The position numbers were made by a program, and so were the translations under genes. From Nemertoderma westbladi (lineage: Eukaryota; Animalia; Xenacoelomorpha), in contig JAUCBJ010000267.1 in NCBI GenBank assembly GCA_032718475.1, positions 45,664 to 109,663 on the forward strand: 64,000 nucleotides of DNA, written 5' to 3'. This document shows positions 11,480-40,632 of the stretch, piece by piece; positions within the stretch are counted from its first letter, which is position 1, and each line of letters begins with the position of its first letter. A model generated the notes under the pieces. The model was not told the origin of the DNA and made no database searches. It worked only from the letters and a program-made list of their open reading frames with translations.

Positions 11480-11487
11480 CCGCTCCA
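11480..11487 (-). promoter_or_regulatory. Short polypurine tract of element A (TGGAGCGG immediately before the 3' LTR)
   Basis: Plus-strand CCGCTCCA abuts the LTR. The same GGAGCGG|TG junction occurs in elements B and C. Confidence 0.7.
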
Positions 11488-11640
11488 AGGGAAATCATAT
11501 AATGTTTCCCTCCAATTGTAGAAGAGTATAAGGTGATGTATACAAAACAAAATAAATTTCTTCCAACCAATCTAAATAACATAATAATTCTACTATTTAC
11601 AAATATTGCCATAGATATTGCATAATGAATTACATACAAA

Positions 11641-13473: not shown

Positions 13474-13554
13474 CGGGTAACCTCCCTCGTTATATCTAAG
13501 GAATTGGTGAGCTGGACATCGCGTTAATATCGGTTCCGGATGTTGCTCGTCTAG

Positions 13555-14043
13555 TCAGTCGGGAATCGCCACGTCCTGTTTATTCATGCATTCACCACAC
13601 TTGTAGAACAGCTTGTACACGCTGAAGACTTTCGGCGTCTCCTGATCCTCGCCTCGAGTCCTCCGATACAGGTGCATTCCGTCGAACTGGTCTCGGACTG
13701 CAGGTAGAGGCTCCTCGTGTCGTAAATACATATTCATATGGTATAGTCGTGCGATTTCCTCGTCCGGATCTGCGCTAATGTCGCACACGTCCAAAGCAAA
13801 GTCGTAGGGATACCGCGTGCGATACTCTCTCCGCAAAACTTCCATCCGGTCCCCCAACGCTCTCATTCTTTCTCTCCGTAATTCTTTATCATAACTTGGT
13901 TTATACTTCCCGTTCAGCTCCATCACGGACCGCCCATGGTAGTAAACGTTAGAGTCTTTACATCCTGGTCGCGCGAATGGTAGCTCCGCCTCCTCTCTGG
14001 CAGTAAATCCTCTGCGCGGTTGCGCTCTAATATCCCTCTCCAT
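13555..14043 (-). CDS. Element A accessory ORF, 162 aa, unknown function, C-terminal YxCxxC
   Basis: Clean ATG-to-stop ORF on the same strand as pol. It shares TRYP, MYL, PLPxV, FxxMxxY and YxCxEC motifs with the ORF at 37155-37862. Confidence 0.7.
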   Translation of the reverse strand: MERDIRAQPRRGFTAREEAELPFARPGCKDSNVYYHGRSVMELNGKYKPSYDKELRRERMRALGDRMEVLRREYRTRYPYDFALDVCDISADPDEEIARLYHMNMYLRHEEPLPAVRDQFDGMHLYRRTRGEDQETPKVFSVYKLFYKCGECMNKQDVAIPD

Positions 14044-14800
14044 TATGTTACGCGTATATACATATATATATATCCCAATAAGTGCCGTTACGTAACCAAT
14101 TACACTGTGGGTAAATCAGTTAGATGCCGCCGAAGGACAGACCTCCCGAACCCCCCCGCCTTCCAGCAGTTCAGGTTCGACTCTCTAGATCCCGTCTCTT
14201 CCTAACTAACTATCCTCTAACCTATTCCCATGCATAGCGCAAAAACTTTGGAGATAAACTGGCCGTGACCAACTCACTTTTTGATGCCCAAACTACTCCC
14301 ATTACTCGTACTAAACTACAGTAGTTAGAAAGGACCATAGCCACAATACTCGACTATACCAAACCCACAGGTTTGATAATCGAACATCACACATCCTGCA
14401 AACTACTGAGTGGGGTCCATGCACGCCTCTGGTGCTACTAACCTTTAGCACCTTAGTTGCACTGTTGGCACCAATCTGTGGAAGTTGCTAAACTCAATTT
14501 ACACTCCTACGTAATATAGCCGTCACCATGGTTTCTAAATGCTATTTTCCAGGCTTCACGACTTTCAAATTACTGTTATCTATAGACGAATTCTAAAACG
14601 CGTCTATACACAGCGTCTGGAATTGTCTTGGGTTCACTTCTAATTTTTAAAATTTTCTAATTTTCCAAAAAATTTTGAAAATAAAATTTTGTTTTGATAC
14701 CCACCAGACAAAACTCAACGCAAATCACCACAACCCCGCTCCTATGCATTTCCTTGTATTTGCATACGAGGAATGCATACGAAGTGAGTTGCGTCCAACA

Positions 14801-16552
14801 CTAACTCTGTTTTGAGGCAGGAGACAAATTATAATCTCCCGTCTCGATACGTGTCTCCTCTAATAACACAATATCTTGGACCGGTCGGTCCAAGGTGTGT
14901 AAACCATTAGTTTTACACCTTTTTGGGTGCGGACACTTGCACCTAATTTTCACAGTGACTGTGCGCACTATGTTTTGCACGTCTGGGTGTGTGTGCAAGA
15001 TCACTCCCGTCTCCCAATACTTTCTCTTGACAATGGGTTCGGTTATCAACACGTAATCTCCCCTTTGGAGACTCCGAACCGTTTTGTACCACTTTGTTCT
15101 GGTGGATATGGTGGGAAGATAGTATTCCCGCCAATATTCCCAGAATGTGTACGCCACAAACTGTGTTACTTTCCAGCTCTTACGACTATATAGGTCGGCA
15201 CTAATGGGTTCTGATGCCGGCACAAGAAATGCTGGACTCTGCATTAGCAAATGATTCGGCGTTAATGCAACACCGTCTGGCAACATAGCTATCGGCCTCG
15301 AGTTTAGGGTATGCTCGATTTCAATGAAAGCTGTGACCAGTTCGTCGTCGGTAAGTTGTTTGTTTACAGGCAATGTTTTGGCAATGGCCTGTTTTACAGA
15401 GCGAACTAAACGCTCCCAACTTCCTCCTCTCCAAGGACTTTCTGGAGTATTAAATCTCCATTCTACTCGTTGCGGCAAAAGTGCTGCAGAAATTTCCTTA
15501 TTCTGTGCTGCTTTATGAGCCGCGTTCAACTCGCTATTCCCTCCGACAAAGTTTGTACCCTTGTCAGAGTAGAACGCCTTTACTAGTCCTCTCCTGGCCA
15601 TAAATCTCTTCAAGGCCAGGAGCAGAGATTTGGTCGACATGTCTGCCACACGCTCGATATGTATGGCTCTACTCGCCATACATGTCAATAGCAGACCCCA
15701 TCGCTTGTGGGTCAGCCGTCCACTCTTTGCTTCAATCGGACCAAAACAATCCACCCCTGTGTTCGTAAAGGGTGGGTCATATGCCTGCACTCTCGCTTCC
15801 GGGAGTTCAGCCATCTCCTGTTCCAATACTCTGGCGTTCACCCTCTTGCAAACCAGACAGGCGTCATACATAGTGCCGACTGCCCTGCTTGGCTGCAATA
15901 GAATGAATCGCTGTCTCGCTGCCGACAAACAGTGTAACCTTCCCGCGTGATGCAACCTCTTATGTATATCCCATAGAATCGCTCTTTGCAATTCTATCGG
16001 GTAACTAGGGATTATCACTGGGAATCGAAACTGTAAGTTTATGTCGACAGTCTGGATTCTCGATCTATGACAAATCAAACCCTTATGGATTAATGGACTC
16101 CATTTTCTAAGGGGTTTATAGAGAACTGGTCGTTGAGCCGATAATAGATGGAATTCTTTAGGGAAGGCACACATTTGATAATATCTCAAATGCTTTAATT
16201 CCGCTTGATCAATCTCATCCTCTGTCAGAGGTTGTTTCAATTTCCGAATTCGCTCACTATTGGTGCTCAATGGTTCTCTCAAATGTTTCGAATGTTTTAA
16301 ACAAAGGTACGAAACGTATCGGCTTAACCACGCAGTTCTTTTACAAATTGTCAGCCAAGAGGCAGACGAATTTAGTAATTTGTCATAAACACTGCATGAC
16401 TCTAATGCCAGCGACGGTTGTCCGCTAACTAATGGAAGTTTCGAATCCAAACCCGCAGGTTTGGAAACCAAAGGATCCATTATGTCGGTCATTTTCTGTC
16501 CGTCACGCCAACTGTGACTCCGGTTTAGTCTGTAAGGGTGGTTTGATGTCAT
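14801..16552 (-). CDS. pol: Element A pol, integrase portion (frameshifted relative to the upstream RT/RNase H)
   Basis: HHCC motif (HKRLHHAG...CLVC) and catalytic motifs TGVDCFGP, YSDKGTNF and GGSWERLV, followed by a BEL-type C-terminus (LDRPVQDIVLL). Confidence 0.93.
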   Translation of the reverse strand: MTSNHPYRLNRSHSWRDGQKMTDIMDPLVSKPAGLDSKLPLVSGQPSLALESCSVYDKLLNSSASWLTICKRTAWLSRYVSYLCLKHSKHLREPLSTNSERIRKLKQPLTEDEIDQAELKHLRYYQMCAFPKEFHLLSAQRPVLYKPLRKWSPLIHKGLICHRSRIQTVDINLQFRFPVIIPSYPIELQRAILWDIHKRLHHAGRLHCLSAARQRFILLQPSRAVGTMYDACLVCKRVNARVLEQEMAELPEARVQAYDPPFTNTGVDCFGPIEAKSGRLTHKRWGLLLTCMASRAIHIERVADMSTKSLLLALKRFMARRGLVKAFYSDKGTNFVGGNSELNAAHKAAQNKEISAALLPQRVEWRFNTPESPWRGGSWERLVRSVKQAIAKTLPVNKQLTDDELVTAFIEIEHTLNSRPIAMLPDGVALTPNHLLMQSPAFLVPASEPISADLYSRKSWKVTQFVAYTFWEYWREYYLPTISTRTKWYKTVRSLQRGDYVLITEPIVKRKYWETGVILHTHPDVQNIVRTVTVKIRCKCPHPKRCKTNGLHTLDRPVQDIVLLEETRIETGDYNLSPASKQS

Positions 16553-17780
16553 AACTTACCCTTCCGGACCTAGTAGTCACGTAAGTCTGTTGGTCTGACA
16601 GGTCTCCGGGCCGCTCCAATAACTCTTCAGGCCGCTCCAATGACTCTTCAGGCCGCTCCAATGACTTAAGTTTGGCTTTAGACTTCGACTTAGAGACTTT
16701 CTCCACTTTGACTTCTGCATCTTCAGGCATCGGATTGGTCACTATCTTTAGTCGTTCTGGCCAATGTTCCTGTGTCCTCGTTAGAAAATCAGGTCCATGC
16801 AACCAAAACTCCTGCGACTCTTCCCGACAGAATTCCGCCGGCATTGCACCTCTCGAAGTTATGTCGGCCGGGTTTAACACTCCCGGACAATGTCTCCATT
16901 GTTCCTTCGTCGAAAAGTCAACGATCTGAGCGCGTCTGTTGGCCACAAATGTCTTTAGTGCAATATTGTCGGCCGCAATGTATACTAACACCAAGGATGC
17001 GTCCGTCCAATAGAATAAGGTCAATGTCGTGTCTAACTCCTCAATTATTTGCTTACTTACCTCGACCGAAACTACAGCCGCCTGTAACTCTGCACGAGGG
17101 ACAGTCATGTATTTGACCGGCATTGTCTTTGATCTAGAAGTCACAAAGGCCGTCTCAAATTTGTCCTGACTTACCTCTCGGCGAAGGTAGGCTACCATAC
17201 CAAAGCCGGTGTCACTTGCGTCACTGAATAAATGCAGCTCGAGATCAGCTGGAAATACCAGCTGATTCGGAAAGTAGGAACGGGGTACGTCTATGTTTTT
17301 CAATAGATGTAACTCGGCTTCCCACTCCCTCCACTGCTTTGCATGTATAGGAGATATTGGTTCGTCCCACTTTAAGTCGGACAACCAAATTTTCCTCATG
17401 CACGCTCGTGCCTGTAATATAACCGGACTGATAAAGTTCATCGGGTCAAATAGTCTACTCAATGTCGATAAGCAAATCCTCTTAGTCAAAACTTTGTCTG
17501 GGCTACTGGGCTCAAATCTAACTCTTACCTGGAACTTGTCTGAGTTCGGGTTCCAAGCGAGTCCCAGTACTCGCGCCATGGGGATTGGTTCTACCCCCAA
17601 TTCTATGTCTCCGCTCCCGCGATCCTTTACCGGGAACGATTCTAATAGGGCCTCCGAGTTAGTAGTGAACTTGGTCAGAGGAAATCCCCCTGTAGCCAAG
17701 CACTCTTGCAGGCCGTGAGCCACTTCTATGGCTTGTTCCGCCGTGTCCTTGGACACCAATCCGTCGTCCATGTAGAAGTT
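16503..17780 (-). CDS. pol: Element A pol, RT C-terminal half plus RNase H (in-frame continuation after the premature TGA at 17781-17783)
   Basis: Motifs NFYMDD, RVLGLAW, LFDPMN, LHLFSDAS, TVPRAELQAA, YWTDAS and NPADITSRG. Confidence 0.93.
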   Translation of the reverse strand, partial: NFYMDDGLVSKDTAEQAIEVAHGLQECLATGGFPLTKFTTNSEALLESFPVKDRGSGDIELGVEPIPMARVLGLAWNPNSDKFQVRVRFEPSSPDKVLTKRICLSTLSRLFDPMNFISPVILQARACMRKIWLSDLKWDEPISPIHAKQWREWEAELHLLKNIDVPRSYFPNQLVFPADLELHLFSDASDTGFGMVAYLRREVSQDKFETAFVTSRSKTMPVKYMTVPRAELQAAVVSVEVSKQIIEELDTTLTLFYWTDASLVLVYIAADNIALKTFVANRRAQIVDFSTKEQWRHCPGVLNPADITSRGAMPAEFCREESQEFWLHGPDFLTRTQEHWPERLKIVTNPMPEDAEVKVEKVSKSKSKAKLKSLERPEESLERPEELLERPGDLSDQQTYVTTRSGRVSYDIKPPLQTKPESQLA

Positions 17781-20700
17781 TCACAAGATGGACTCGATAA
17801 CCTCTACTGGGTACTTACCAATCTGGGCTGTTGCCGTTTTCTTTAGAACAAACAGCGTGCCATTTGGACTATCGCGGGCGCCAAATATCCTAACGTACAT
17901 TTGGTATGTAACCACTGGGCCGGATAAGTCTTCATTCTCGTACCAGAGAAAGCGAAGGCTATCCTGGTCTGCCTTACAGGCTCTTACCTGGTGGAACATC
18001 GCCTCGATGTCACAAGTAAATGCGAATCGCCGCTGTCTAAAACGTAACAGTATTCCGATCAAATAGTTATTCAGGTTGGGACCATCCATCAACTCTGAAT
18101 TCAGGGACATACCTCTATAGACTGCTGCGCAGTCGTTGACTACTCGGACTTTGTCAGGTTTGTCAGGGTGAGTCACATAGTGGTGTGGAAGGTAATAAGT
18201 CTGGTCTGTCACTAAGTCAGGGTCCTCTACCTTCCCAGCAAATCCCTTGGCGAAATAGTTGTTGATCTGGGCGCAATACTTCTCCCTAATGTCCGGATTC
18301 TTCAACAACCGAGCCCTTACTCCATTTAATCTTTTCAAGGCTAAGCTGTAGTTGTTCTCCAACTTAGGTGGTTGTCGACGCCACAACATTCCAACTTCAA
18401 AATGTCCAGTCGGTAGTAGACGTATGGTATCTTCCATCATCTCCAGCGACCGTTTCTCATCAGTAGACATGGCCAGGTCATATCCACCGGGTTCCATTGC
18501 GTCCCTATCCAGCCATTCGACGGTTCTGGCTCCTGTCTCGAGGTCCTGGCATATCAATTCCTTCTGTAATTCCTCCTCACTGTACTGGAAAATGTCTAGG
18601 TCTCGATATTTAGCCACTTGACCCTCCACTATTTCTGTATAAGTCAAAACGTTAGTCAGATAAGTAGCGTGGGCCGCTGAACCAGACCCACGGGTCTGAT
18701 AACAGTAGTCCTCGGGTTCACTATCTGTCCGGTCGTTATGAAGTGGTTCCGACAACCTAACATTATCGGGAATCAACTCCTCGTCCGACTCGCTAAAGTC
18801 ACTATAGTGGTCAATGCAGGTTCTCCTAAACTCGTCTATGTCTGGTGGTTCTACTAACGGTGGTTGAGTTATAGGCTGTAATTCGTCGTATCTGTCCATT
18901 GGCTTGTCGCCACCTGTAAACTCATAAGACATGGGTACTCTTGTATACCAACCTAGTATGGTCCTATGGGCATGTGGTCCATTGACATGCGGCTCAGCTG
19001 GTCTCGTTTCCCATATCTGGTGTGCGATCAGCTGTTCTGCACCAATTAACATAGAAACATTCCTATAACCTACCTGGTGTCTGGGTATCCTGAGCTTGTC
19101 AAAATACTCCTGTGCTATGGGACTCATCGGCGGCACCTTACCTAACTGCCTGCCGAATCCCTTCATAGCTAGACACTTAAATCCGTCCAATGGCAAAGCT
19201 TTCCGTTCTTGTCGAGTGTGTTGGTCTCTCGGAAGTAGGGAATCTAGTTCTACCGAAATTCTGTGTCCCTTGAGGTCTCCTACCCCGTGCATAGACTTCA
19301 ACTCTATTTGGATCTCCTCGGCGTCCTGGAAGCTAGAAACAGCTCTCGCCACTTCCTCGTCGATATACGATAATGTGGACGCAGTGTCCAACATCACATA
19401 TATTCGTTTCGATCCCTTATCTCCAGTGAGTTTCACCGGAATCACGCTAAATATTTCCGACGTGGCCGATGATAAATACGTCCGCGCGCTGGTCGATGAA
19501 CTATCCGCGGTGAAACCTTGGCAGGTCACTTCTCTCGCGCTCAACTCGCCATCCTCGTCCGACGAACCTGGTTGGTAACCATCGTCCTGGATGCCAGTGT
19601 ACGTATTCCTCCTTATCGATACGGGTTCTTTGCTCCCCTTCCTGTGAGGATTTCGCTGTAAGTAACGGTCCGTTGGGGTATGGAAATCCGCATGTAGCAA
19701 CTTGTGATGTAGTCTGCCGCATTCCATGCATCCGTCCTTGCTGTTCGGGCACTGCCGCCATACATGGCCTGGCGCAAGACATGCCCAACAGGTGTCCAAC
19801 GTCCGCACTTGAACTCTTCTCTGTTCCGAATTTAATTCTTTGAACCGTCTGCAACTATCTAACTTATGGTCGTCAGATCTTACCTCCTTTAGTAAACAGT
19901 ATTGGCAACCTACAAATCCATCCGGCAACTCCTGTTGCTTTAACCTAGGTCTATCTAACCGCTCACCTGACCATACTCGCGAGTCTGATCTAAAGGCTGG
20001 GGTATTCGAATTATATCTGTCTACTGAGTTATAAGTCACAGTGGTCCTGTCATCGTCAAAACTTACCATAGACTTACCGGTAACAGGTTTAGACTCCCTC
20101 ATATTCTCTTCTGAGAAGTTTGATTTCATCTCTGCTACTGCGTCTGTGGCTATCATGTCATGAATATGCTGAAGTGTCAACACCTTACCTTGGCCCTCCA
20201 ACTTATTCTCTAATTTGCGCCATTTCTGTCTGTAACGCATGTTTAGACGTCTTATTACGCTTTTCAAAACTTCGGCGTGATCACCATGATGAGGTAGATT
20301 CACCGTCCTCAAGATGTCCAATGCGTTCGAAATAGCGTTCGCTAAGTTCAACAGCTCTAACGGAGTTGTAATCCTTCCGCCCTTACCCAAGTCTTCTACT
20401 ATCGACTGCGCCATCTTCGTTTTATTCCCGTAGATGTCACTAAGCGTCTTCATCGCTAACTCAAATGCTCTTTCATTGCCGACGAAGTTATCAGCAATGG
20501 CTCTAGGTTCTCGATGGAGCATCTGAAGCAAATAGTTGAACTTCTCGTTGGGAGTAAAGGTGCTGTTGGTTAGCTGCTCGTCGACATAGGTTCTAAAGGT
20601 CCTCCAGTGCTTGTGGTTGCCCATAAACTTCTGGGGTTGTTGCGTCGGCAGTCCTTGCCTAGCAGCAAACTTACCTATGTCCCTAAGGGTTGCGTCATTC

Positions 20701-22754
20701 CGGGTTAACAAATGGTTTAGTTCCGCAGGGTTATTAAGTCTGGTCCTTTCCCGGTGGTTCCAACTTACCTGCTCCGCGTCCGTCCTTCTTTCCTTATAGT
20801 TTCGGGACTTCTGACGTCTCATGTCTTCCTTTTCATCGCTTGACTCGGTGTCAGTCCTTAGCGCTCGCGATGGTTTGCGCGCCGAGGCCCTGATCCAAGC
20901 ATCCTCAATAAATTTCTCTGCCGAATTTTCGAAATTGGGATTATGGATATTCGGGACAGGCGTCCTTACCTGAGGTCTATGTGGTATAGTCTCCTCCGAT
21001 ATGCGTACTCGTTGACTAGGCTGGACTTTATCTAACTCAGGCCTGCTGGGATTAGAATTACTTCTTACCTGGGCTGCTTCCTTTAACCGTAGGTTGCTAA
21101 GCATGTCCGTTATAGGTTGGATGTGCGGCGATATAGCTTGCGCTAAACTAGCACTTAACTCATCCCTCGTAATAAATTCCTGGCTAGGGTTCTGTTGTAT
21201 AGTCGGCTCTATCTGAGTAATCCGCTGTCTCTCATATGATCCCTCTTCCGGTTTAACCCGGAAGTTCTCCGTCGAACTGGGTCGGCGCTCCGTCCGCGTA
21301 TTCCAAACCCTCGGGTTCGGTTCGCCAAATACTCGGCCCGTCGGAGTTTCTTCTCTAAATTCTCCGTTGTCACGTTCGGTATACAGTGGTGCGGTGTTCC
21401 GATGACGTAGATCCTGGGCGATAGGTGAAGCACTAATACCAACTGGCGTGCGATATGTAGAGAACGGTTTAACGATCCGTGTACTCGTAATAGCTGGACC
21501 GGGTATAGGAATTCTGGTCGTCGTCGACTCGCGTATAGCCGGAGTTCTCGCTTCCTGTTCGGCCTTCTGCAGTGCGAACAGTTCTCGCAACTCAGTCCCT
21601 ACACTCGCCCTACATTCTTCGATCATTCGCATCCCCTTCTCGGCGATTTCGTTCGCCTGGTTCGTCCGCTCGGCTTCCTTCCGTGCTTCCTGTGCACGCA
21701 AAACTTCCGCCTGCTGTTCGTCTAGTCGGCGTCTTCTCTCCTCCGCCGATTTGTGAGAAACAAGGGATCTAGCACATATTACTTTACCTCGCGCGTGACT
21801 AACCTGGGAATCGCCGCTGTCTCTAGATGCATCGTCGGGTGGAGTTAACGCCCTCTGTTGAATGTTCTCCGTCGTCGGTAGCACCTGACCTGGTACCACC
21901 ACTCCATTCTGCATCAGCCAGCTAGTAACTTCCCTCTGATAACGGCGCTCTTCCTTATCTTGGATCTCTTCTCGCTCCACTAAGTCTCTCAACTCTACGT
22001 CACTCACCTGAGTCGCCTGCGCTTGTGATGTCCATAGAAGCCAGTTCTCCGTCCTAACTCGTCGGAATCGCTCCGATAACTCGCGGTGCTCCAACAAGGC
22101 TGCTAAAACCCTGTCGTAAATCCTCGTCGCCACGTCGCTCGACTGAGACTCTACTGCCTTCTTCGCTAGGACTGCAAGCTCCTCCGTCTGCTTGAATAAC
22201 GCTGAGTTATATCCTCTTCTAATCTCTACTAACTCTACCCTCCCGATGTTCGCTGGGTCAGCTAACATTTTCCTTACCTTGTCCGCCGTCCGAGTTATAT
22301 GTCCGGCATGCGCGCGAAGTTTCTTCTTTATCGCGATATCGAACTCTCTATCACTCACCTGACTTACGCTCGGTGGACTTGAAGGATTATTTCGGGAACT
22401 ACGGGTACTCCTAACAGCCGTCGGAACCACGGCACTTACCATACCCACAGGTCTGGAAACCGGGCTCCGGGCTCTCGCTTCTGCTACACTACCCTCCCTA
22501 TCACTCACCTCTGTCCGGGCTGCCGTACAGTCCTTCCTATCAGTAGCGGTAGGGGATCCTAATACTATTACCTGAGGCTGCTGTTCTTCCTCACTAGTCA
22601 CTGTCTCGTCCTCCTGTTCACTTACGTCAGCGTCACTCGCTGCGTCGTCATAGTCGGCATTGTCATCAACAGTAATATTTACGCTATCGTCAGTCGGCGG
22701 TCCAGCCGCCGTCTCGTAGCTGTCCTCTAGTGCCTCTTTGTCTGAGACACTCAT
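17781..22754 (-). CDS. gag-pol: Element A gag-protease-RT (N-terminal half) polyprotein, 1657 aa
   Basis: BEL gag core (KFMGN...W..F...EKFNYL), triple Cys/His array (CQYC..H....C, CWACLAPGHVWRQC, CMECGRLHHKLLH), protease VMLDTAS, and RT motifs YYLPHH, KVRVVND and DIEAMFHQV. Confidence 0.95.
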   Translation of the reverse strand: MSVSDKEALEDSYETAAGPPTDDSVNITVDDNADYDDAASDADVSEQEDETVTSEEEQQPQVIVLGSPTATDRKDCTAARTEVSDREGSVAEARARSPVSRPVGMVSAVVPTAVRSTRSSRNNPSSPPSVSQVSDREFDIAIKKKLRAHAGHITRTADKVRKMLADPANIGRVELVEIRRGYNSALFKQTEELAVLAKKAVESQSSDVATRIYDRVLAALLEHRELSERFRRVRTENWLLWTSQAQATQVSDVELRDLVEREEIQDKEERRYQREVTSWLMQNGVVVPGQVLPTTENIQQRALTPPDDASRDSGDSQVSHARGKVICARSLVSHKSAEERRRRLDEQQAEVLRAQEARKEAERTNQANEIAEKGMRMIEECRASVGTELRELFALQKAEQEARTPAIRESTTTRIPIPGPAITSTRIVKPFSTYRTPVGISASPIAQDLRHRNTAPLYTERDNGEFREETPTGRVFGEPNPRVWNTRTERRPSSTENFRVKPEEGSYERQRITQIEPTIQQNPSQEFITRDELSASLAQAISPHIQPITDMLSNLRLKEAAQVRSNSNPSRPELDKVQPSQRVRISEETIPHRPQVRTPVPNIHNPNFENSAEKFIEDAWIRASARKPSRALRTDTESSDEKEDMRRQKSRNYKERRTDAEQVSWNHRERTRLNNPAELNHLLTRNDATLRDIGKFAARQGLPTQQPQKFMGNHKHWRTFRTYVDEQLTNSTFTPNEKFNYLLQMLHREPRAIADNFVGNERAFELAMKTLSDIYGNKTKMAQSIVEDLGKGGRITTPLELLNLANAISNALDILRTVNLPHHGDHAEVLKSVIRRLNMRYRQKWRKLENKLEGQGKVLTLQHIHDMIATDAVAEMKSNFSEENMRESKPVTGKSMVSFDDDRTTVTYNSVDRYNSNTPAFRSDSRVWSGERLDRPRLKQQELPDGFVGCQYCLLKEVRSDDHKLDSCRRFKELNSEQRRVQVRTLDTCWACLAPGHVWRQCPNSKDGCMECGRLHHKLLHADFHTPTDRYLQRNPHRKGSKEPVSIRRNTYTGIQDDGYQPGSSDEDGELSAREVTCQGFTADSSSTSARTYLSSATSEIFSVIPVKLTGDKGSKRIYVMLDTASTLSYIDEEVARAVSSFQDAEEIQIELKSMHGVGDLKGHRISVELDSLLPRDQHTRQERKALPLDGFKCLAMKGFGRQLGKVPPMSPIAQEYFDKLRIPRHQVGYRNVSMLIGAEQLIAHQIWETRPAEPHVNGPHAHRTILGWYTRVPMSYEFTGGDKPMDRYDELQPITQPPLVEPPDIDEFRRTCIDHYSDFSESDEELIPDNVRLSEPLHNDRTDSEPEDYCYQTRGSGSAAHATYLTNVLTYTEIVEGQVAKYRDLDIFQYSEEELQKELICQDLETGARTVEWLDRDAMEPGGYDLAMSTDEKRSLEMMEDTIRLLPTGHFEVGMLWRRQPPKLENNYSLALKRLNGVRARLLKNPDIREKYCAQINNYFAKGFAGKVEDPDLVTDQTYYLPHHYVTHPDKPDKVRVVNDCAAVYRGMSLNSELMDGPNLNNYLIGILLRFRQRRFAFTCDIEAMFHQVRACKADQDSLRFLWYENEDLSGPVVTYQMYVRIFGARDSPNGTLFVLKKTATAQIGKYPVEVIESIL

Positions 22755-23904
22755 AGTCTAAATAATATTTGCCTTCCGGCAAAAATCTCGCAAAAGTTCG
22801 AGATATAATTATAATTTAACCGAAATACGGTCAAATTATTTGTCAAATAATCAGTTGGTCCAAATGTCAAATAAATTCGCAATACAATATTGTGAATTTA
22901 ATGGGGTATATAGTTATAGCAAATACTAACACAATATTTAAACAAAAATATTATTATATAGCTACTATATAATATTAAATACCGGTATAGCACAAAATAA
23001 CTCTGAATCTAATACAAAATATTCAAAATAGACTTGCCACCCGAATATTTCCAATTTTATATATAGCTCTAATCAACGCAATTTTAGTTTCAAATATTAT
23101 ATGTATCCACTAGCGCGTGGCTACATCTTCGGGTTGCGACTCTCTCTAACTCTCTCTCTAACTTGAGCGATTCAAAAAAACCATGGCCGGCTAAACCTAA
23201 ATATCCTAACTAATAAATTGAGTTCAGCTTCGCAGTTAAACAACCGGTAATTTTTTACTGCTTCCACAAACACACTGGCGCCAACAGAACAACTAACCTT
23301 GTTTGCTGTGAGATTCCACGTCCGCGTCCAAAGATTCAGGCCCTTCGCTGATTGCAAACCGAACCCGCAGACCCACACGAACCCCAAACTCAGAAGTCCC
23401 GTCTTGCCATGTATCTCCAGATGGTATAAAATAACTAAGCGGTTACCTAACATACCGGTACAAAACTCTAGAATTTTACAAATAATTTTGACCGAAAACT
23501 GAATTCTCGCAAACCTAGCTAATAATTTTCAAAAACTTACTAATTACAATTTGCCCTAAGGCCTAAGGAACTGCTGTATTCGCAATTAGCAAAACGCACT
23601 ACCGTACATCCACTGTATGCAGTACAGTAAGTAAAACAGTACACCAACCTAACAGCCTAATGATACTGTGTGTGGTACGGCAAACAAATGTCCTTCTACC
23701 GTACGCAGTAACAGCAATCAGCCTAATGTACTACTGTACTAGTGTACGCAGCCAGTGAATACTCTATCTGCCTTACTGTACGCAGTACAGCAAAGCAATA
23801 CTGCACGTATCACTGATACAAAGTATCAGTGATCTAAACTAATAGCAGTCTAAACTAACAGCCTAAGAATACACTATTGACCGCTGCAAGCAACAGCCAA
23901 TAAT

Positions 23905-23914
23905 CACGTATCAC
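23905..23914 (-). promoter_or_regulatory. Element A primer-binding-site position (GTGATACGTG), complementary to its own LTR rather than TGG-type
   Basis: Immediately follows the 5' LTR on the minus strand. Exact reverse complement of the minus-strand LTR segment CACGTATCAC (24998-25007). Confidence 0.75.
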
Positions 23915-26100
23915 TGATAAACAACCGCGACCTCTATACTAACAGCAGAACTGTTGAACAGACCAATACCCGTTAATATCCTTCTGCCAACCTAATAAGT
24001 TCTCGTCTAACCAATAAGACACAAAGACTGCTCTACTGTTAAGTAAAGGGGCTCAGGAGCGTGATATTACTAAATTGTAAGGGTTGCTAAATACAAAACC
24101 GCTACTTACCGTTAGATGGCGCTAATCTGCCGTCCGCTAATATATTTACTAATTTTACACAACCAGACAACTCCTGCAAAATCGCTTGTTCCTTTCTCTA
24201 CCGATTGCTCAATAGAGAGCTAACTGTTCGAATCTATGAGCCACGCGGGAATAACCAAAACAATAAACCCGAGTCGGCTCCCTAAGCTTACTTAAGACGA
24301 GTGCGAGAGGCCTTGCACTCAGAGTATTCTTACGCCTAATTCTATCACTTATTAAAGCACGCTATTACCTACGTCTTTCTAATCGCGAATACTGGGGTTT
24401 CTCTAACGTAATGTGTGAATGCGAGAATATTTAAATATCAAAAATGGTACAGTAATTGTCTCTCGTGGATAGTACCACTCTGGGTCTAAAATTGCCTGCA
24501 GCTGGCTTTAGGCCAGCAAATCACTAGCGTTTCGTGCGTACCGAATAGTGCGTTCTAGCTGATTGCCCGCTAATGCGAATAACCGCTTAGCGTGAATAGT
24601 TTACAGTACTCTAATTATTACTTTAGCTACTCTCCGCTATGCTGCGTACTAATTCTTAATTTTACTAATCAATTACAGTCACAAATATTTAACAGCGTAC
24701 TAATTACTAAGAGTTCCAGAATACGTAATTCTAATTTATCACGCAACAGGTTTCGCTAGTAATAGCCTAAATTGCCGTATTACTTTGACCTAATCAGTAA
24801 CTAATTGTTGTAACTAAGAAATAGAAATCAATCAAAGAGAAAAGAGCGCCTACCTAAACATTCACAATCATAGGCACACTTCAGTAACACACCAATCAGC
24901 ATCAGCAATCACAGTTCGCAATTATGCAGTTAACTACTGTATAGCCCACAATTATGCGACTCACTATTCGTACTACACGCTCAACGTTCGAAACGTTGTG
25001 ATACGTGCAGGCCTCTCCCGGGTACATATAGGACTCCTAACTAACCTGATTCCCGCCCCCCTAATACTAAATAGAGACGAAACCTGGATCATCAGCCCCC
25101 TAATTGCCGTACCGGCGATTGGTCTGCGTACCACAGCGTTAACTTCCCGACCGCAACGGTGACCCCACGCCAGCGTTGCTCGCTTTGAATCCTCCGCTCT
25201 CCCTTAGTCGCCCAACCCCCCGATGTGCCCACCGCCCGCTGGCGCCTTAGCCCTCCATTACGCTAATAGCTACCGTAGCGGCGCATGCAAATCACAAAGT
25301 CTGACAGTCTCAGGAATCCCTTGGGATTATTGCGCAGAAAGGAATCACATAGAACCATCAATCAAAGGTAGAAATCATAGTTCGATTGTAATTTGCAGTA
25401 ATCGAAGGAATTATTGAGAAACACAAGCAAAGTAATCGCACTAGCAAATCATTCCAAGAAATTAATCAAATTAGCAAATTGCAGAAAATACGATATCCTA
25501 ATACAAATTAGAGACAGCTCAGCAAGTAAATTGTAACAGGGGTGTGTCATGTGAGTGAGAGATTGATGATAGGCTCTACCGGCACACCGCCAATTTATAG
25601 GTGATCCGGGTGGGATGATGCAATAGGGTGACTCAATCGCTCTCCTATTGGCTCTCCAGTCCATGCTAGCATTAGACCAACCTGGAAGCAGTTAATCCAA
25701 TAAGGAGGCAGGATTGTAGCCCTATGCCCTCAAATAATTACCATATATGGTAATGGATCACGTCTCTGGCTGCTGAATGGCCAGGACGGCGTCCCTATAT
25801 GCTAGCCCTATCAAACTAATATCAGCAAGCACAAAATCCAGGGTCCGAGTAAACTCGCTACCCTGGAACTATCTACATATATCCTAATACAAAATTACGT
25901 AGGTAGGGCTACATACTATACAAAATGAATGGATGCAAATATATGGGCGTTTTAACTTCCTTACCTAAATGTCACCACACTGCGCCTTATCTAAATAATT
26001 ATACTGCACAACGGACTAATATTACGTACAGTATAACGGACTAATACTGCATACTGCATAATGGACTAATACTGTGGATACAGCGCCATATACCGTAACA
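23915..26100 (-). repeat. Element A 5' LTR (2186 bp)
   Basis: Minus strand reads TGTTACGG...GTTTATCA. Direct repeat of 9302-11479. Confidence 0.97.
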
Positions 26101-29100
26101 GGGATGTTGGCGATCGGGTTTCATTGACATACTGTAATGACAGGGTCGGGGATGTTGGCGATCAGGTTTCATTGACATACTGTAGTGACAGGCTCGGGGA
26201 TGTTGGCGACCAGGTTTCATTGACATACTGTAGTGACAGGGTCGGGGATGTTGGCAATCAGGTTTCATTGACTTACTGTAATGACAGGGTCGGGGATGTT
26301 GGCGATCAGGTTTCATTGACATACTGTAGTGACAGGGTCGGGGATGTTGGCGATCAGGTTTCATTGACATACTGTAGTGACAGGGTCGGGATGTTGGCGA
26401 TCAGGTTTCATTGACATGTAGTGCAGTGACAGGGTCGGGGATGTTGGCGATCAGGTTTCATTGACATACTGTAGTGACAGGGTCGGGGATGTTGGCGATC
26501 AGGTTTCATTGACATACTGTAATGACAAGGTCGGGGATGTTGGCGATCACCTTTCATTGACATGCTGTAGTGACAGGGTCGGGGATGTTGGCGATCAGGT
26601 TTCATTGACATGTAGTGCAGTGACAGGGTCGGGAATGTTGGCGATCAGGTTTCATTGACATACTGTAGTGACGGTCGGGGATGTTGGCGATCAGCTTTCA
26701 TTGACATACTGTAGTGACTGGGTCGGGGATGATGGCGATCAGGTTTCATTGACATACTGTAGTGACAGGGTCGGGGATGTTGGCAATCAGGTTTCATTGA
26801 CATACTGTAGTGACAGGGTCGGGATGTTGGCGATCAGGTTTCATTGACATGTATTGCAGTGACAGGGTCGGGGATGTTCGCGATCAGGTTTCATTGACAT
26901 ACTGTAGTGACAGGGTCGGGGATGTTGGCGATCAGGTTGCATTGACATACTGTAATGACAAGGTCGGGGATGTTGGCGATCACCTTTCATTGACATGCTG
27001 TAGTGACAGGGTCGGGGATGTTGGCGATCAGGTTTCATTGACATGTAGTGCAGTGACAGGGTGGGGATGTTGGCGATCAGGTTTCATTGACATACTGTAG
27101 TGACGGTCGGGGATGTTGGCGATCAGGTTTCATTGACATACTGTAGTGACTGGGTCGGGGATGTTGACGATCAGGTTTCATTGACATACTGTAGTGACAG
27201 GGTCGGGTATGTTGGCGATCAGGTTTCATTGACATACTGTAGTGACAGGGTCGGTGATGTTGGCGATCAGGTTTCATTGACATACTGTATTGACAGGGTC
27301 GGGGATGTTGGCGATCAGGTTTCATTGAGATACTGTAGTGTAGTGACAGGGTCGGGGATGTTGGCGATCAGGTTTCATTGACATACTGTAGTATAGTGAC
27401 AGGGTCGGGGATGTTGGCGATCAGGTTTCATTGACATACTGTAGTGACAGGGTCGGGGATGTTGGCGATCAGGTTTCATTGACATACTGTAGTGACAGGG
27501 TCGGGGTTGTTGGCGATCAGGTTTCATTGACATAGTGCAGTGACAGGGTCGGGGATGTTGGCGACCAGGTTTCATTGACATACTGTAGTGACAGGGTCGG
27601 GGATGTCGGCGATCAGGTTTCATTGACATATGTGGTGACAGGGTCGGGGATGTTGGCGATCAGGTTTTATTGACATACTGTAGTGCAGTGTGACAGGGTC
27701 GGGGATGTTGGCGGCCAGGTTTTATTGACTACTGTAGTGCAGTGCGACAGGGTCGGGGATGTTGGCGATCAGGTTTCATTGACATACTGTAGTGACAGGG
27801 TCGGGGATGTTGGCGATCAGGTTTTATTGACATACTGTAGTGACAGGGTCGGGGATGTTGGCGATCGGATTTCATTGACATACTGTAGTTGACAGGGTCG
27901 GGGATGTTGGCGATCAGGTTTCATTGACATACTGTAGTGACAGGGTCGGGGATGTTGGCGATCAGGTTTCATTGACATACTGTAGTGACAGGGTCGGGGA
28001 TGTTGGCGATCAGGTTTCATTGACATACTGTAGTGACAGGGTCGGGGATGTTGGTGATCGGGTTTCATTGACATACTGTAGTTGACAAGGTCGGGGATGT
28101 TGGCGATTAGGTTTCATTGACATACTGTAGTGACAGGGTCGGGGATGTTGGCGATCAGGTTTCATTGACATACTGTAGTGACAGGGTCGGGGATGTTGGC
28201 GATCAGGTTTCATTGACATACTGTAGTGACAGGGTCGGGGATGTTGGCGATCAGGTTTCATTGACATACTGTAGTGACAGGGTCGGGGATGTTGGCGATC
28301 AGGTTTCATTGACATACTGTAGTGACAGGGTCGGGGATGTTGGCGATCAGGTTTCATTGACATACTGTAGTGACAGGGTCGGGGATGTTGGCGATCGGGT
28401 TTCATTGACATACTGTAGTTGACAGGGTCGGGGATGTTGGCGATTAGGTTTCATTGACATACTGTAGTGACAGGGTCGGGGATGTTGGCGATCACCTTTC
28501 ATTGACATACTGTAGCGACAGGGTCGGGGATGTTGGCGATCGGGTTTCATTGACATACTGTAGTTGACAGGGTCGGGGATGTTGGCGATTAGGTTTCATT
28601 GACATACTGTAGTGACAGGGTCGGGGATGTTGGCGATCAGGTTTCATTGACTACTGTAGTGCAGTGACAGGGTCGGGGATGTTGGCGATCAGGTTTCATT
28701 GACATACTGTAGTGACAGGGTCGGGGATGTTGGCGATCAGGTTTCATTGACTACTGTAGTGCAGTGACAGGGTCGGGGATGTTGGCGATTAGGTTTCATT
28801 GACATACAGTAGTGACAGGGTCGGGGATGTTGGCGATCAGGTTTCATTGACTACTGTAGTGCAGTGACAGGGTCGGGGATGTTGGCGATCAGGTTTCATT
28901 GACATACTGTAGTGACAGGGTCGGGGATGTTGGCGATCAGGTTTCATTGACTACTGTAGTGCAGTGACAGGGTCGGGGATGTTGGCGATCAGGTTTCATT
29001 GACATACTGTAGCGACAGTCGGGGATATTGGCGATCAGTTTTCATTGACATACTGTAGTGACAGGGTCGGGGATGTTTGCGATCAGGTTTCATTGACTAC

Positions 29101-30488
29101 TGTAGTGCAGTGACAGGGTCGGGGATGTTGGCAATCAGGTTTCATTTACTACTGTAGTGCAGTGACAGGGTCGGGGATGTTGGTGACCAGGTTTCATTGA
29201 CATACTGTAGTGACAGGGTCGGGGATGTTGGCGATCAGGTTTCATTGACATACTGTAGTGACAGGGTCGGGGATGTTGGCGATCAGGTTTTATTGACTTA
29301 CTGTAGTGACAGGGTCGGGGATGTTGGCGATCAGGTTTCATTGACATACTGTAGTGACAGGGTCGGGGATGTTGGCGATCGGGTTTCATTGACATACTGT
29401 AATGACAGGGTCGGGGATGTTGGCGATCAGGTTTCATTGACATACTGTAGTGACAGGCTCGGGGATGTTGGCGACCAGGTTTCATTGACATACTGTAGTG
29501 ACAGGGTCGGGGATGTTGGCAATCAGGTTTCATTGACTTACTGTAGTGACAGGGTCGGGGATGTTGGCGATCAGGTTTCATTGACATACTGTAGTGACAG
29601 GGTCGGGGATGTTGGCGATCAGGTTTCATTGACATACTGTAGTGACAGGGTCGGGATGTTGGCGATCAGGTTTCATTGACATGTAGTGCAGTGACAGGGT
29701 CGGGGATGTTGGCGATCAGGTTTCATTGACATACTGTAGTGACAGGGTCGGGGATGTTGGCGATCAGGTTTCATTGACATACTGTAATGACAAGGTCGGG
29801 GATGTTGGCGATCACCTTTCATTGACATGCTGTAGTGACAGGGTCGGGGATGTTGGCGATCAGGTTTCATTGACATGTAGTGCAGTGACAGGGTCGGGAA
29901 TGTTGGCGATCAGGTTTCATTGACATACTGTAGTGATGGTCGGGGATGTTGGCGATCAGGTTTCATTGACATACTGTAGTGACTGGGTCGGGGATGATGG
30001 CGATCAGGTTTCATTGACATACTGTAGTGACAGGGTCGGGGATGTTGGCGATCAGGTTTCATTGAGATACTGTAGTGTAGTGACAGTGTCGGGGATGTTG
30101 GCGATCAGGTTTCATTGACATACTGTAGTGTAGTGACAGGGTCGGGGATGTTGGCGATCAGGTTTCATTGACATACTGTAGTGACAGGGTCGGGGATGTT
30201 GGCGATCAGGTTTCATTGACATACTGTAGTGACAGGGTCGGGGATGTTGGCGATCAGGTTTCATTGACATACTGTAGTGACAGGGTCGGGGATGTTGGCG
30301 ATCAGGTTTCATTGACATACTGTAGTGACAGGGTCGGGGATGTTGCCGATCGGGTTTCATTGACATACTGTAGTTGACAGGGTCGGGGATGTTGGCGATT
30401 AGGTTTCATTGACATACTGTAGTGACAGGGTCGGGGATGTTGGCGATCAGGTTTCATTGACATACTGTAGTGACAGGGTCGGGGATGT
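26101..30488. repeat. 48-bp tandem satellite, block 2
   Basis: Same monomer. It resumes in register after the GGGAT TSD. Confidence 0.98.
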
Positions 30489-30536
30489 TGTAAAAGCTTT
30501 TGCGTAATTAGCCGGTTATTTTCCCCGTAAAGTACT

Positions 30537-31722
30537 TGTAAAAGCTTTTGCGTCATTAACCGGTTATTTTCCCTTAAAGTACTCTGTAGTTGGTTTGCCA
30601 GGCATAAAAAGGCCGTGTCCTTGCTGTACTGGTGTTTTAGAGGACATAAAAGTCATTTCTTATGTATTTGTACTGTATTTGTACTTTAGAGGACATAATC
30701 CACAATCTCGTGACGCGATAAGCTAGATACTCTTGAAAACAGTGTCGCTACCATGACGATGGCTAACAGCTGATATTGCCACGTCGACGTTTCTTTGTTT
30801 CTTTGTTCTCTCGTTGTTCGGTTGACCAATCAGAGCGTTTGTTGTCTCTGTGTTGGAGGTGTATACAGAGGCTCAGTAGTTCAGTGTTATGTTTTTGCCC
30901 AGAGCCTAAGAACCGGCTTTTGGCACCTCCGTGTTTTCAGTTTTTAGTCTTACACTAGTAGGCTTAATTATAAGGACATATATCCGTTATCATAACATAA
31001 CTAAACATAACATACCATACCTAATCAAACAACCTGTGCATACTTTTATATTGTTATACTGCTATTTACTGTCAGTTCTTCATAATATGGTTGATGAATT
31101 ATTATATTTGGAATAACGATAAATAACCCCGAAAACCCAATATTCTTGATATACCGAAGGTAAGAGAGAAAGGTTACATATAACGATTGTGACTTATGTT
31201 AAAGTGGTTTAAAGTGAATCTAATGTTATTTGATAGACCCTACATGATTCGGTCCGTGTTCCTTTTATATGTGACTAAAATCAGTGAAGATCGGCAGATC
31301 AGTGTGCAGTATTGTGCAGCATTGTGTATGAGTGAGACTGATAACGAAGCATTTCCTAAAGAATGCGCCATATATGTGAATTGTAACTAAGCCATATCGT
31401 TGTGAGTAGTTTAAGTCATAACTCTGTTTATATAGATAGAGCGCCACGTCCTAAAGGAACTGTTAATATTTCCCGAAGGTGAATAATATTGTCAGAGATT
31501 ATATAATACTGTCAGTCGAATAATACATTAGGCTTACATAGCAATAAGATTAAGCCGTCGAACCCAATCTCCCGGGTATATCCAGCGGGTGAATGATCGC
31601 GCACAGATTGGTTTCGACTAGTGTAGTGAATCAAATACTTGTCATAGGCTAAAAGTAATTTATTATCTAGAAGACATCCTAATTTGGCGGGTTAAACTGC
31701 CAAAGGTCTGAAAGCGCGAACA
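30537..31722 (+). repeat. Element B 5' LTR (1186 bp)
   Basis: TGTAAAAGC...GCGCGAACA, repeated at 38334-39519 with about 3 visible substitutions. Confidence 0.96.
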
Positions 31723-31733
31723 ATAACGGATAT
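31723..31733 (+). promoter_or_regulatory. Element B primer-binding-site position (ATAACGGATAT), complementary to its own LTR
   Basis: Exact reverse complement of LTR segment ATATCCGTTAT at 30980-30990. Confidence 0.8.
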
Positions 31734-32074
31734 TTAGTCTGTATTGCAGTGTAGGCATTAAATACAGTTTAATATTGTTCTGGTAAGAACAATAACGGAT
31801 ATAGCTTCTGTATTGCAGTAGGCAATAAAGCTGAAGTACCGGCAACCGGTACCCAGTAGGCCTGACTACCTAACCACCCGGACCGGTACATACAGCAGTA
31901 CAGGTACAGCAGTATTATTCGATTTTGATAATTATATACCGGTAGGCCTTAATAATTAATCAGGGACTGCAGCCCTGGTTTTTTATTGAGATTTTTACTT
32001 ATTTCTGTCAAGTTTTATTTGTTTGTAGGCCAGTATTGAACAGAAGGCGTGTAAGTCTGATCAGATTGTACAGA

Positions 32075-32640
32075 CAATTTGTAGGCTGAGCTGTTGTCTG
32101 ATTGCTGTTAAGTCCGAACGGATTGCAGTGTGTGTAGAGCCTCTGTCCGATAAAGAACGGTTAGGAAGTAGGGGCAGCCAAAGCTGTAAGGTAAACCCCC
32201 AACTAAAGAATAAGTCGTACTACTGGGTTAGAACGCATACTACCTAATCATTTCGGAGTCTGCATGTCCTGTAGTTTATTTAGGCTTGAGAGTAGTCTGC
32301 CATCGTTTAGTCTGTACTTTGTTTGTGTAGTCTGTACAGGTAGCGTATAATATTTATTTAGATAATTTGTAGGCTGGATAGTTGTCTGGCTGTTATTAGG
32401 TCTGAACGGATTGCAGTGTGTGTAGAGCCTGTCCGATAAAGAACGGTTAGGAAGTAGGGGCAGCCAAAGCTGTAAGGTAAACCCCCATCTAAAGAATAAG
32501 TCGTACTACTGGGTTAGAACGCATACTACCTAATCATTTCGGAGTCTGCATGTCCTGTAGTTTATTTAGGCTTGATAGTAGTCTGTCAGTATTTGGTCTG
32601 CATTTTGTTTGAGTGGTTTGTACGCGTAGCGTAATATTTA
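32075..32640 (+). repeat. About 290-bp tandem duplication in the 5' leader of element B
   Basis: Two copies begin AATTTGTAGGCTG at about 32075 and 32363. The same duplication is present in C at about 40925-41500. Confidence 0.8.
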
Positions 32641-33953
32641 TTATTCAGAGTTTATGCGATTATTTGCCACATTCATTCCCCAAGTTTGTTCCTACAGTAA
32701 TTGTGTTTGTTATACATACCGCTATAGTTAAATTAACCCCGGTACTACACGGGCTGCTTGGCGTAGGTAAAGACTGGTGATTTTGTGCACCGGTCACTCC
32801 AGCAGATGCCGTGGTTCTTTTAACTGTTCAAGTATATTTAACTACTGATTATATGTTGTACAAGTACTCGTACCTAATTTAGGGTTTAGTGTACAGTGCT
32901 TTCCGAAAGTAATTAGTGTAGGCATTATATTTGTGTTGTAAAGTGGTTGATAGGCACGTTCGATTAGCTCTATTAACTTCTAGGTAGGGACACTCCGTGA
33001 TACATAACGTAGTACCTATATCGATACGGCTATAGGTCGTCAGGCGGTGGTATTTTCCTATCTGGACAACGCAGTGTATTTACTACTACGTATTATTTTC
33101 AAATAACCGCAGTACCCTGTCCGTTGTAATAACCAGATTTCTAACCCTTTGTTAGGCTGGTTTGTAGACTTCTTGTAAAATTACCCTGAAAATTTGTATT
33201 TTGTGTTTTTGTAAATTTTTGTGTTTATTTAGAGATTGTAATCTCACCCGAATTGTACGTAATTTGTAGTATTAAGTAACTTAGGTAAATTAGAATTATT
33301 TGTTTTAGTGTCCTATAAGTAACACTTCACTGAAAGCGCACCGCTTTGTGTAGTGATTACTCCCCAGAAATAATAACATTTATTTCAAACATTGACAAAA
33401 CCCATTAAACGGATATATATATATTATAAATCAACTCAAACGATTTATAAATAGTAGGCCTGCCATATAACAATTAGGTCTCAATATCAGTTGGACTACT
33501 GCTTAAATAACGGTAATAAAGTAAGTTAAAGTAACCAAGTAACCTTAAAATTCAGAAATTCAATTATTTAAAATAATTGATATACAGGTATCCACGATAG
33601 GCCTATTATATATTTATATTTGTGCTGAAATCATACCGGTATTCTGTAATTAATTCTAGTTAATAATTATACTTATATATCCTATAAGTGTAAACTGTAT
33701 ACCGGTATCCACGATAGGCCTATTATATATTTATATATATTTGTACTAAAATTATATACCGGTTTCTGTGAAAAACCTAGTCTGTAATAATACTTATATA
33801 TACTATAAGCATACCGGTATTCTAATATTATATATATCACGCTACACTGAGTAGCAGTATCGGTAATTAATTACTAGGCTAGCAGTTAATACTGAATTAC
33901 TAGACTTGCTTAGACTGTAATATAGCAGTAGACATTCAACTGTGTAAACAAAC

Positions 33954-36887: not shown

Positions 36888-37154
36888 TTATTATGTCAAT
36901 AAAACGCCTAAAGACCAGGTAAGTAAATTCAAGTCTCTAACCAATGACAGGAGAGAACAGGTAAGAAAAACTCCTCCTACGTCTCCCAAGAGAATTCAGG
37001 TGAGAAAGCCCGAGGAAAGAACGAACGTACACCACACAGCACATGTTAAAGTAAGTAACATCAAGCCCAAATGTGTGCTGTGCGATGGGCCCCACCGTTT
37101 AAATGCGTGTGATAAATTCCTGAGGAAATCACTAAAGGATAGACGTGAAGTCAT

Positions 37155-37862: not shown

Positions 37863-38333
37863 ACGCTATTCTACAAAGATCAGAAAGGAAACCTACGTTT
37901 GTTCAGATAAACGTAAGTTGTAACAGCAAGTCCAAGCGATAAACGAATTGTCTTTATCTCAGTTCGATTGTGAAATCCAGAATCTCTAAGAAGATATCGC
38001 ACTTAGACAACCCCATTCTCTGCGAGAGTTTTTGGATGAACGTATCCAGCTACGAGCGGAGGAAAATCAGCTCGAGGAGAAGCATATCGAAACGGCGGAT
38101 ACCCCTACCATAATCCTACACCTTCTGATGCAATCATATTGCACCCTTCACCCAGGATTTATAGCCCTCCTAGTAAAGTGGCTCCCCCCAAAGAGAAAAG
38201 GACTCTTGCTAGCCTCAAAAAACTGCGTAAACGCCGTCTGCGTAAGAAAGACTAACTGTTTAGAGTATTTTTATATTTTAGAAACTGTGATTTGTTATAT
38301 TTTATAGACTTAAATCCCATTTTCTGGGAGCGG

Positions 38334-40621: not shown

Positions 40622-40632
40622 ATAACAGATAT
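40622..40632 (+). promoter_or_regulatory. Element C primer-binding-site position (ATAACAGATAT), complementary to its own LTR
   Basis: Exact reverse complement of ATATCTGTTAT at 39909-39919, with a compensatory change relative to element B. Confidence 0.8.

Follow-up and report, generated by a model that had tools for sequence, protein, structure and literature searches.

Complementarity between primer-binding sites and LTRs suggests self-primed reverse transcription in BEL/Pao elements of Nemertoderma westbladi

Results

Three BEL/Pao elements in a satellite array

The window analyzed here, a 64-kb stretch of genomic DNA of N. westbladi, consists of a 48-bp satellite array broken up by three LTR elements (A, B, and C). 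Element A has the following features:

9302-26100, minus strand: element A, 16.8 kb, BEL/Pao, inserted in the 48-bp satellite
23915-26100, minus strand: 5′ LTR, 2186 nt, TGTTAC...TTATCA
9302-11479, minus strand: 3′ LTR, 2178 nt, TG...CA
11480-11493, minus strand: polypurine tract, ending in GGAGCGG, seven letters common to B and C
17781-22757, minus strand: gag-PR-RT(N) frame with DUF1759, a triple Cys-His box, and an MLDTA protease motif
16503-17780, minus strand: RT(C)-RNase H frame with YMDD, DAS, and Peptidase_A17
14801-16555, minus strand: integrase in a separate frame, with Integrase_H2C2, D(61)D(49)E, and DUF5641
13555-14115, minus strand: extra ORF A4, between pol and the 3′ LTR
11974-13554, minus strand: extra ORF A5, 526 aa

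The two LTRs of A differ by three substitutions and one 8-nt indel, and a 5-bp target duplication (ATCCC) flanks the element on both sides. Its pol is interrupted twice, by an in-frame stop in RT (17781-17783, immediately upstream of YMDD, where the gag-PR-RT(N) frame terminates) and by a frame change ahead of the integrase. The domain order is gag-PR-RT-RH-IN with Pao-specific Pfam domains, and Pfam E-values were 7e-9 for DUF1759, 3e-40 for Peptidase_A17, and 2e-17 for DUF5641. PF05380 was present in all 120 homologues among the matches listed, of which the best were ~41% identical and the named ones came mostly from marine invertebrates. Judged against the BEL/Pao hallmarks given in excerpts of PMC554778, A contains the triple Cys-His box, an LLDxG/LIG-type protease, Y(V/M)DD, DAS, and an expanded DD(45-53)E, deviating in its protease motif, which reads MLDTA, and in a longer spacer in the first Cys-His box. 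The integrase of Sinbad, D(62)D(49)E in the same excerpts, is close to the D(61)D(49)E of A. By its protein domains A is thus a BEL/Pao element, a variant without the tRNA primer-binding site (PBS). No chromodomain was found in A (Pfam, E ≤ 0.01), which sets it apart from the Tf1/sushi chromovirus group. A quick tree placed A on a long branch of unsettled position, apart from the self-complementary relatives described below, and viral contigs contained no relative.

Residues 255-526 of A5 scored 0.92 with DNA_pol_A_exo1/Werner-like exonuclease clusters of the Atlas, a comparison of language-model features only; 24 of the 30 matches were to DNA_pol_A_exo1 clusters, with the family present on 11-38% of their members. 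Searches of Pfam, PDB, and a 1.8-billion library, like the homologue search, returned no sequence homologue of A5, and B, C, and the 80 relative loci surveyed below lack a counterpart. The bdelloid LTR elements Juno and Vesta carry a DEDDy exonuclease as ORF3, as described in parts of PMC5408684. Like that ORF3, A5 may be an extra ORF for a 3′-5′ exonuclease between pol and the 3′ LTR; the likeness comes from language-model features only and makes A5 a candidate exonuclease. A4 weakly resembles extra-ORF remnants of B and C (37206-37409 and 50561-50662, plus strand; 31% over 77 aa, in-window E 0.001), a hint that the elements may have an accessory gene in common.

The 48-bp satellite occupies 1-9301, 26101-30490, and 52214-54666. 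A and C are inserted there and B in the LTR of C, possibly through targeting or through accumulation in heterochromatin. Further tandem arrays lie at 59440-61073 (period 50, ~33 copies) and 61713-62101 (period 13, ~30 copies).

The primer-binding site of element A matches its own LTR

The features involved are as follows:

23905-23914, minus strand: PBS1, GTGATACGTG, at offset 0 after the LTR end TTATCA, without TGG
24998-25010, minus strand: putative self-primer segment, pairing over 10 bp with PBS1 and 13 bp with PBS2; copy at 10377-10389
23801-23819, minus strand: duplicated LTR end plus PBS (PBS2, 23813-23801), partly within an 11-bp hairpin (23833-23809)
24982-24998, minus strand: 7-bp hairpin CAACGTT-TCG-AACGTTG, whose first C is the last base of the segment
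23873-23904, minus strand: predicted hairpin directly 3′ of PBS1, adjoining the primer helix in the model

An earlier note on this DNA had described a PBS without TGG directly after the 5′ LTR of A and its exact complement within both LTRs, in the polarity of a minus-strand primer. Both observations were reproduced: GTGATACGTG stands at 23914-23905, offset 0, and its exact complement CACGTATCAC at 25007-24998 and 10386-10377. Priming by the mature end of a tRNA requires TGG in the PBS. TGG is absent at offsets 0-6 after the LTR in all three elements, A, B, and C, which therefore lack the 18-nt tRNA-Arg/Gly PBS of the ICTV description.

The 10-mer complement was recovered in none of 5000 dinucleotide shuffles of the A LTR. 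A match of at least 10 nt at any of six offsets arose in 29 of 5000 shuffled LTRs, and 6 of 216 control windows in A's own leader reached the same length. Given these 6 of 216 windows, a chance origin of the A complement, taken alone, is unlikely but not impossible.

A second unit of LTR end plus PBS, which the earlier note had missed, sits at 23819-23801, 101 nt downstream of the PBS1 unit. PBS2 pairs over 13 bp with 25010-24998, with an energy of -22.1 kcal/mol vs. -15.2 kcal/mol for PBS1. Such a downstream duplication occurs in two unrelated families, in A (23819-23801, 101 nt) and in B (31787-31803, 69 nt). If used, a second PBS copy would lengthen the LTR yet keep the terminal CA.

The 7-bp hairpin that the earlier note had placed at the primer 3′ end is present in A (24998-24982) and missing in B and C. 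We rejected it as a general signal, and the mechanism probably does not include it as a general component.

Elements B and C carry the same layout with different letters

30537-39519, plus strand: element B, internally deleted BEL/Pao, inserted in the 5′ LTR of C, target duplication GTACT
30537-31722 and 38334-39519, plus strand: LTRs of B, with three differences
30489-52209, plus strand: element C, internally deleted BEL/Pao; 5′ LTR split by B, ending at 40621
51576-52209, plus strand: 3′ LTR of C, truncated
31723-31733, plus strand: PBS position of B, ATAACGGATAT; second copy at 31792-31802
30980-30990, plus strand: complement in B, ATATCCGTTAT; copy at 38777-38787
40622-40632, plus strand: PBS position of C, ATAACAGATAT
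39909-39919, plus strand: complement in C, ATATCTGTTAT; copy at 52008-52018

The layout seen in A recurs in B and C, which the earlier note had likewise missed. Gag identity between A and B/C is 23-27%, and the PBS letters of A and B/C are unrelated. Complements of 11 bp, at offset 0 and free of G-U pairs, are found in both B and C, so that 3 of 3 window elements have offset-0, G-U-free matches. Shuffled LTRs reached the match in 13 of 5000 cases for B and 6 of 5000 for C. B and C are 87% identical across LTR and leader and differ at one pair of the match, G-C in one and A-T in the other, the change being made in the PBS and in the LTR segment alike. Identity between their LTRs stays at 0.88-0.98 over the 300 nt leading to the segment end; directly past the segment it drops from 0.88 to 0.50 over the following 50 nt, the lowest of the bins, which fits a functional boundary at the predicted cut.

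In sequencing run X1 (contigs only, presumed RNA), one contig joins a B-type PBS straight to sequence resembling that beyond the second copy of B, suggesting a single-PBS form of the B-type element. Summed contig depth over the B LTR rises past ~31040 in this run, whose contigs reveal neither starts nor levels. Neither the segment nor the PBS of A is covered by X1.

A hairpin in U5 just before the PBS is kept in B and C (31683-31704 and 40582-40602), with a G-U vs. A-U change and a bulge. A GCCGGA-rich insert at 41990-42850, perhaps a small DNA transposon, interrupts the C leader; its ends are inverted, with arms near 41990-42060 and 42805-42845.

Complements accompany the absence of TGG among BEL/Pao relatives

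The earlier note had called for a screen of BEL elements for complementarity between PBS and LTR. We drew 80 BEL/Pao loci from metagenome contigs; 30 contained a long-range direct repeat, which ended at CA in 10. Leaving out L010 and L012, copies of the L011 family, gave 8 loci. One of these, L072, which has TGG and lacks a complement, was set aside since its LTR pair does not enclose its pol match but sits next to it and belongs to a neighboring element. The remaining loci and the three window elements made up a final set of 10 BEL/Pao elements whose LTR end is fixed.

All 8 elements without TGG have a complement of at least 10 nt in their own LTR, vs. neither of the two with TGG (L011 and L071); control windows gave a match in 11 of 2259 cases. 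The 8 elements represent about six families. Their pairings are all free of G-U and in register with the LTR end, and every tabulated paired PBS begins with GT or AT. The complement is contiguous in A, B, C, L004, and L068. In L023, L024, and L026 it exists (12-15 nt) only across a GT-AG intron. A complement that splicing alone creates implies an RNA role for the segment in these elements; by analogy, the segment of A may work as RNA too. A splice-built primer was rejected for A, B, and C themselves, where the match is contiguous and no intron junction lengthened it.

When 43 of the 80 loci were scanned less strictly, 13 yielded plausible matches and 30 none or misplaced ones, with the LTR end inferred from position only for L013, L017, L034, L045, L051, L074, and L080. 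GT-AG introns of ~65-160 nt in the LTR split the PBS complement in L013, L017, L023, L024, L026, L031, L034, L051, and L080. The spliced match of L031, read by eye, spans 18 bp with two G-U pairs.

A proposed priming cycle

The observations that bear on priming are the complementarity and its register relative to the LTR end, the fact that it recurs with different letters, the covariation between B and C, and its mutual exclusivity with TGG. From these we infer the start site, pairing in vivo, and cleavage and extension by RT. A, B, and C likely prime minus-strand DNA with a piece of their own LTR RNA, in the manner of Tf1. The earlier note had proposed tRNA-independent self-priming as a candidate mechanism for A, and the idea gains independent support from B, C, and several distant relatives, which keep the complementarity with different letters, from the matched B-C change, and from the TGG-bearing relatives without a complement.

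Transcription would begin a few bases before the segment (about 25012-25008 in A), and the 5′ end would fold back over R-U5 (1083 nt in A, 732 in B, and about 700 in C) onto the PBS. In the fission-yeast elements the loop between primer and PBS is far shorter than in A, B, and C, which speaks against the model. The RNA would then be cut after the segment, probably by the RNase H of RT, which in A has the DAS motif, placing a 3′ OH on the first base past the LTR CA. RT would copy U5-R to the cut and jump to the 3′ R. Plus-strand synthesis would copy the primer, so that the PBS is regenerated from the segment and the match stays Watson-Crick-perfect; in Tf1, too, the primer is reportedly copied back into the PBS. 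Given the stop in the RT of A and the absence of most of pol from B and C, these forms could have been copied recently only with enzymes supplied by another copy.

Transcription start, RNA folding, and the primer 3′ end

Two promoter candidates were found in the A LTR, their function being predicted from motifs:

25023-25124, minus strand: proximal candidate, with CCAAT (-115), a GC box (-51), and TATA-like TATATG (-23)
25561-25600, minus strand: distal candidate, with TATAAA (-592) and CCAAT (-644)

The proximal candidate ends a CpG-rich stretch of 200 nt with 61% GC. About 30 nt beyond the distal TATAAA stands an initiator-like TCATCAATC (about -560), and this TATAAA/initiator combination, ~590 nt upstream of the segment, is stronger than the proximal set. 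A start from either candidate would include the segment in the RNA. If TATATG acted at canonical spacing, transcription would start near 24999, the segment would be mostly untranscribed, and the model would fail for A.

The dinucleotide CA, which is initiator-like, precedes the paired segment at -3/-2 in 9 of 13 elements vs. a background of ~5% (a post hoc comparison of related rows), and is missing in A, C, L034, and L031. With this absence and its second, canonical promoter ~590 nt upstream, A agrees least well with the model at the start site. L024 has TATATAAG 31 nt upstream of its paired segment. The CA pattern suggests that the RNA may start about 2 nt before the segment.

RNAs begun 2 nt before the segment were folded. 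Forcing the helix cost 0.2 kcal/mol for A PBS1, 7.9 for A PBS2, 1.1 for B, and 0.0 for C. For A, the helix probability (PBS1 plus PBS2) was 0.57, 0.98, 0.96, 0.90, 0.93, and 0.77 with 3′ ends 20, 60, 80, 100, 120, and 150 nt past PBS1 and 0.00 at 200 nt, so that 6 of the 7 ends tried gave 0.57-0.98; the helix shifts from PBS1 to PBS2 as the modelled RNA lengthens. A start at 25008 with long 3′ context gave 0.007/0.026. The B helix had a probability of 0.22, then 0.00 with 200 nt after the PBS, and the C helix 0.96 and 0.77, the latter dropping to 0.004 once 42 bases of upstream sequence were included. Folding support thus depends on context in these models and is weak either way. The three-duplex pretzel of Tf1 was not clearly recovered: helices between flank and LTR exist, none of them consistent across A, B, and C, and local hairpins take their place 3′ of the PBS.

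The segment could be the primer even if its 3′ end were made otherwise, from a longer RNA begun at the distal promoter (about 25570), from short LTR transcripts provided in trans that are cut or shortened as far as the duplex (with the exonuclease-like ORF of A as a possible agent), or as the polyadenylation end of the RNA. The canonical CCAAT-TATAAA-initiator series of A and its break with the CA rule speak for a longer RNA, as does the instability of a cis fold across 1.1 kb in the longest contexts, whereas upstream sequence is what lowers the C helix from 0.77 to 0.004. Trimming by A5 would draw on its high score with DNA_pol_A_exo1 clusters, set against its lack of a sequence homologue and of a counterpart elsewhere in the set. 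A primer made at the poly(A) site is unsupported, since neither AATAAA nor ATTAAA occurs in any of the three window LTRs and the AATAAA of L068 lies downstream of the segment. Taken together, these routes seem unlikely.

Host RNAs as primers

The tRNA alignment in the PMC9023262 supplement (a partial, non-host file with gap characters; 114 control matches) contains none of the primer 8-mers of A or B, and the C. elegans tRNA table in PMC8192933 (non-host; 164 control matches) contains none from A, B, or C. ARAGORN predicted 0 tRNA genes in the window and none in the 60 of 80 relative loci scanned. Rfam returned nothing in the A LTR and two sub-threshold miRNA matches, both outside A; a hammerhead-like CTGATGA noticed by eye in the A LTR had no Rfam support. 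Cer7 is said to encode a tRNA-like primer of its own. No tRNA-like gene of this kind was found inside A by ARAGORN or Rfam.

The pairing might instead be a structural or regulatory helix (a leader fold, a packaging signal, or a dimer switch) that masks the PBS, the true primer being an RNA of the host, for instance an internal tRNA fragment. Structural helices can usually accommodate G-U pairs and slips; the pairings here, by contrast, are in register and G-U-free in 8 of 8 fixed cases (the two G-U pairs of L031 were read by eye). A different host RNA would also be required for each of at least six unrelated PBSs, each mirrored in cis, and the primer 8-mers of A and B are missing from both non-host tRNA tables, and those of C from the one searched. 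Precedents do exist in the host tRNA priming that ICTV gives for Belpaoviridae (PMC8742986), in the half-tRNA primers known in Copia (sections of PMC6317226), and in the TGG-type PBS of the relatives L011 and L071. On balance we consider a masking helix distinctly improbable.

A broader reading than self-priming in A, B, and C would have tRNA-independent priming widespread in BEL/Pao, by contiguous or splice-built primers, with A LTR transcripts trimmed to the PBS duplex by the element's own exonuclease-like ORF and the two tandem PBSs (10 bp and 13 bp) serving as a switch; to this we would give only a slim chance. That the pairing arose by chance, or as a side effect of local duplications or inversions, is very improbable: the A LTR is long, 10-nt matches turn up in some control windows (6 of 216), and the duplicated LTR-end/PBS units of A and B imply that the region rearranges, but such an origin is largely refuted by the separate appearance of the pairing in A and in B/C, by the B-C change matched on both sides, and by the split of 8/8 vs. 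0/2.

Discussion

Self-priming from the element's own LTR RNA, the reading we favor for A, B, and C, is an established mechanism in Tf1 (parts of PMC7175516, PMC4600332, and PMC5341516), for which a pretzel fold has been described (portions of bioRxiv 10.1101/2022.12.06.519325). According to the portions of these sources cited, Tf1, Tf2, Tj1, and the Tf1/sushi group (Ty3/gypsy, Metaviridae) resemble A in having a PBS right after the LTR CA that is complementary to ~11 nt of their own LTR RNA, and no tRNA site. A differs from the Tf1/sushi group as a BEL/Pao element without a chromodomain match, and the loop between primer and PBS is 0.7-1.1 kb in the window elements. Compared with Tf1, A, B, and C have no evident pretzel, their start and RNase H cut are deduced here from sequence, and BEL/Pao relatives can apparently build the primer across an intron.

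Self-priming has been reported for Tf1/sushi and Tcn1 and predicted for the Copia TAR lineage (parts of PMC6317226 and PMC3601003). In the TAR lineage (Houba, Osr-1; Ty1/copia) and the Tcn1 clade, from plants and fungi, self-priming was predicted, as for A, from complementarity between PBS and LTR (parts of PMC6317226); these belong to other superfamilies and other kingdoms than A.

The ICTV description of Belpaoviridae gives an 18-nt tRNA-Arg/Gly PBS, LTRs of 0.2-1.2 kb, and a genome of 4.2-10 kb, and calls replication in the family poorly understood (PMC8742986). Element A shares with this family the DUF1759 gag, triple Cys-His box, Peptidase_A17, YMDD, DAS, DUF5641, and a 5-bp target duplication, and departs from the profile in having no tRNA PBS, 2.2-kb LTRs, and a 16.8-kb span. 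The earlier note knew of no self-priming BEL lineage and asked for a literature check. We likewise found no self-primed BEL/Pao element in the literature searched, and ICTV lists tRNA priming; a prior report is possible, as subscription journals, Repbase/GyDB notes, and bioRxiv supplements lay outside that scope. Term searches found no mention of PBS or tRNA in the accessible text of PMC3118150 and PMC554778, and only a generic one in that of PMC8220671.

The sequences thus point to a mechanism known from other elements, here in a group whose members are described as primed by tRNA, and the feature itself is real and common to several families. Annotation tools that demand a tRNA match would misreport such elements. 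If the proposal is correct, BEL/Pao would be the third LTR superfamily with self-priming, after Ty3/gypsy and Ty1/copia, which would bear on whether self-priming is ancestral or has arisen repeatedly, and the elements would be freed from the host tRNA supply.
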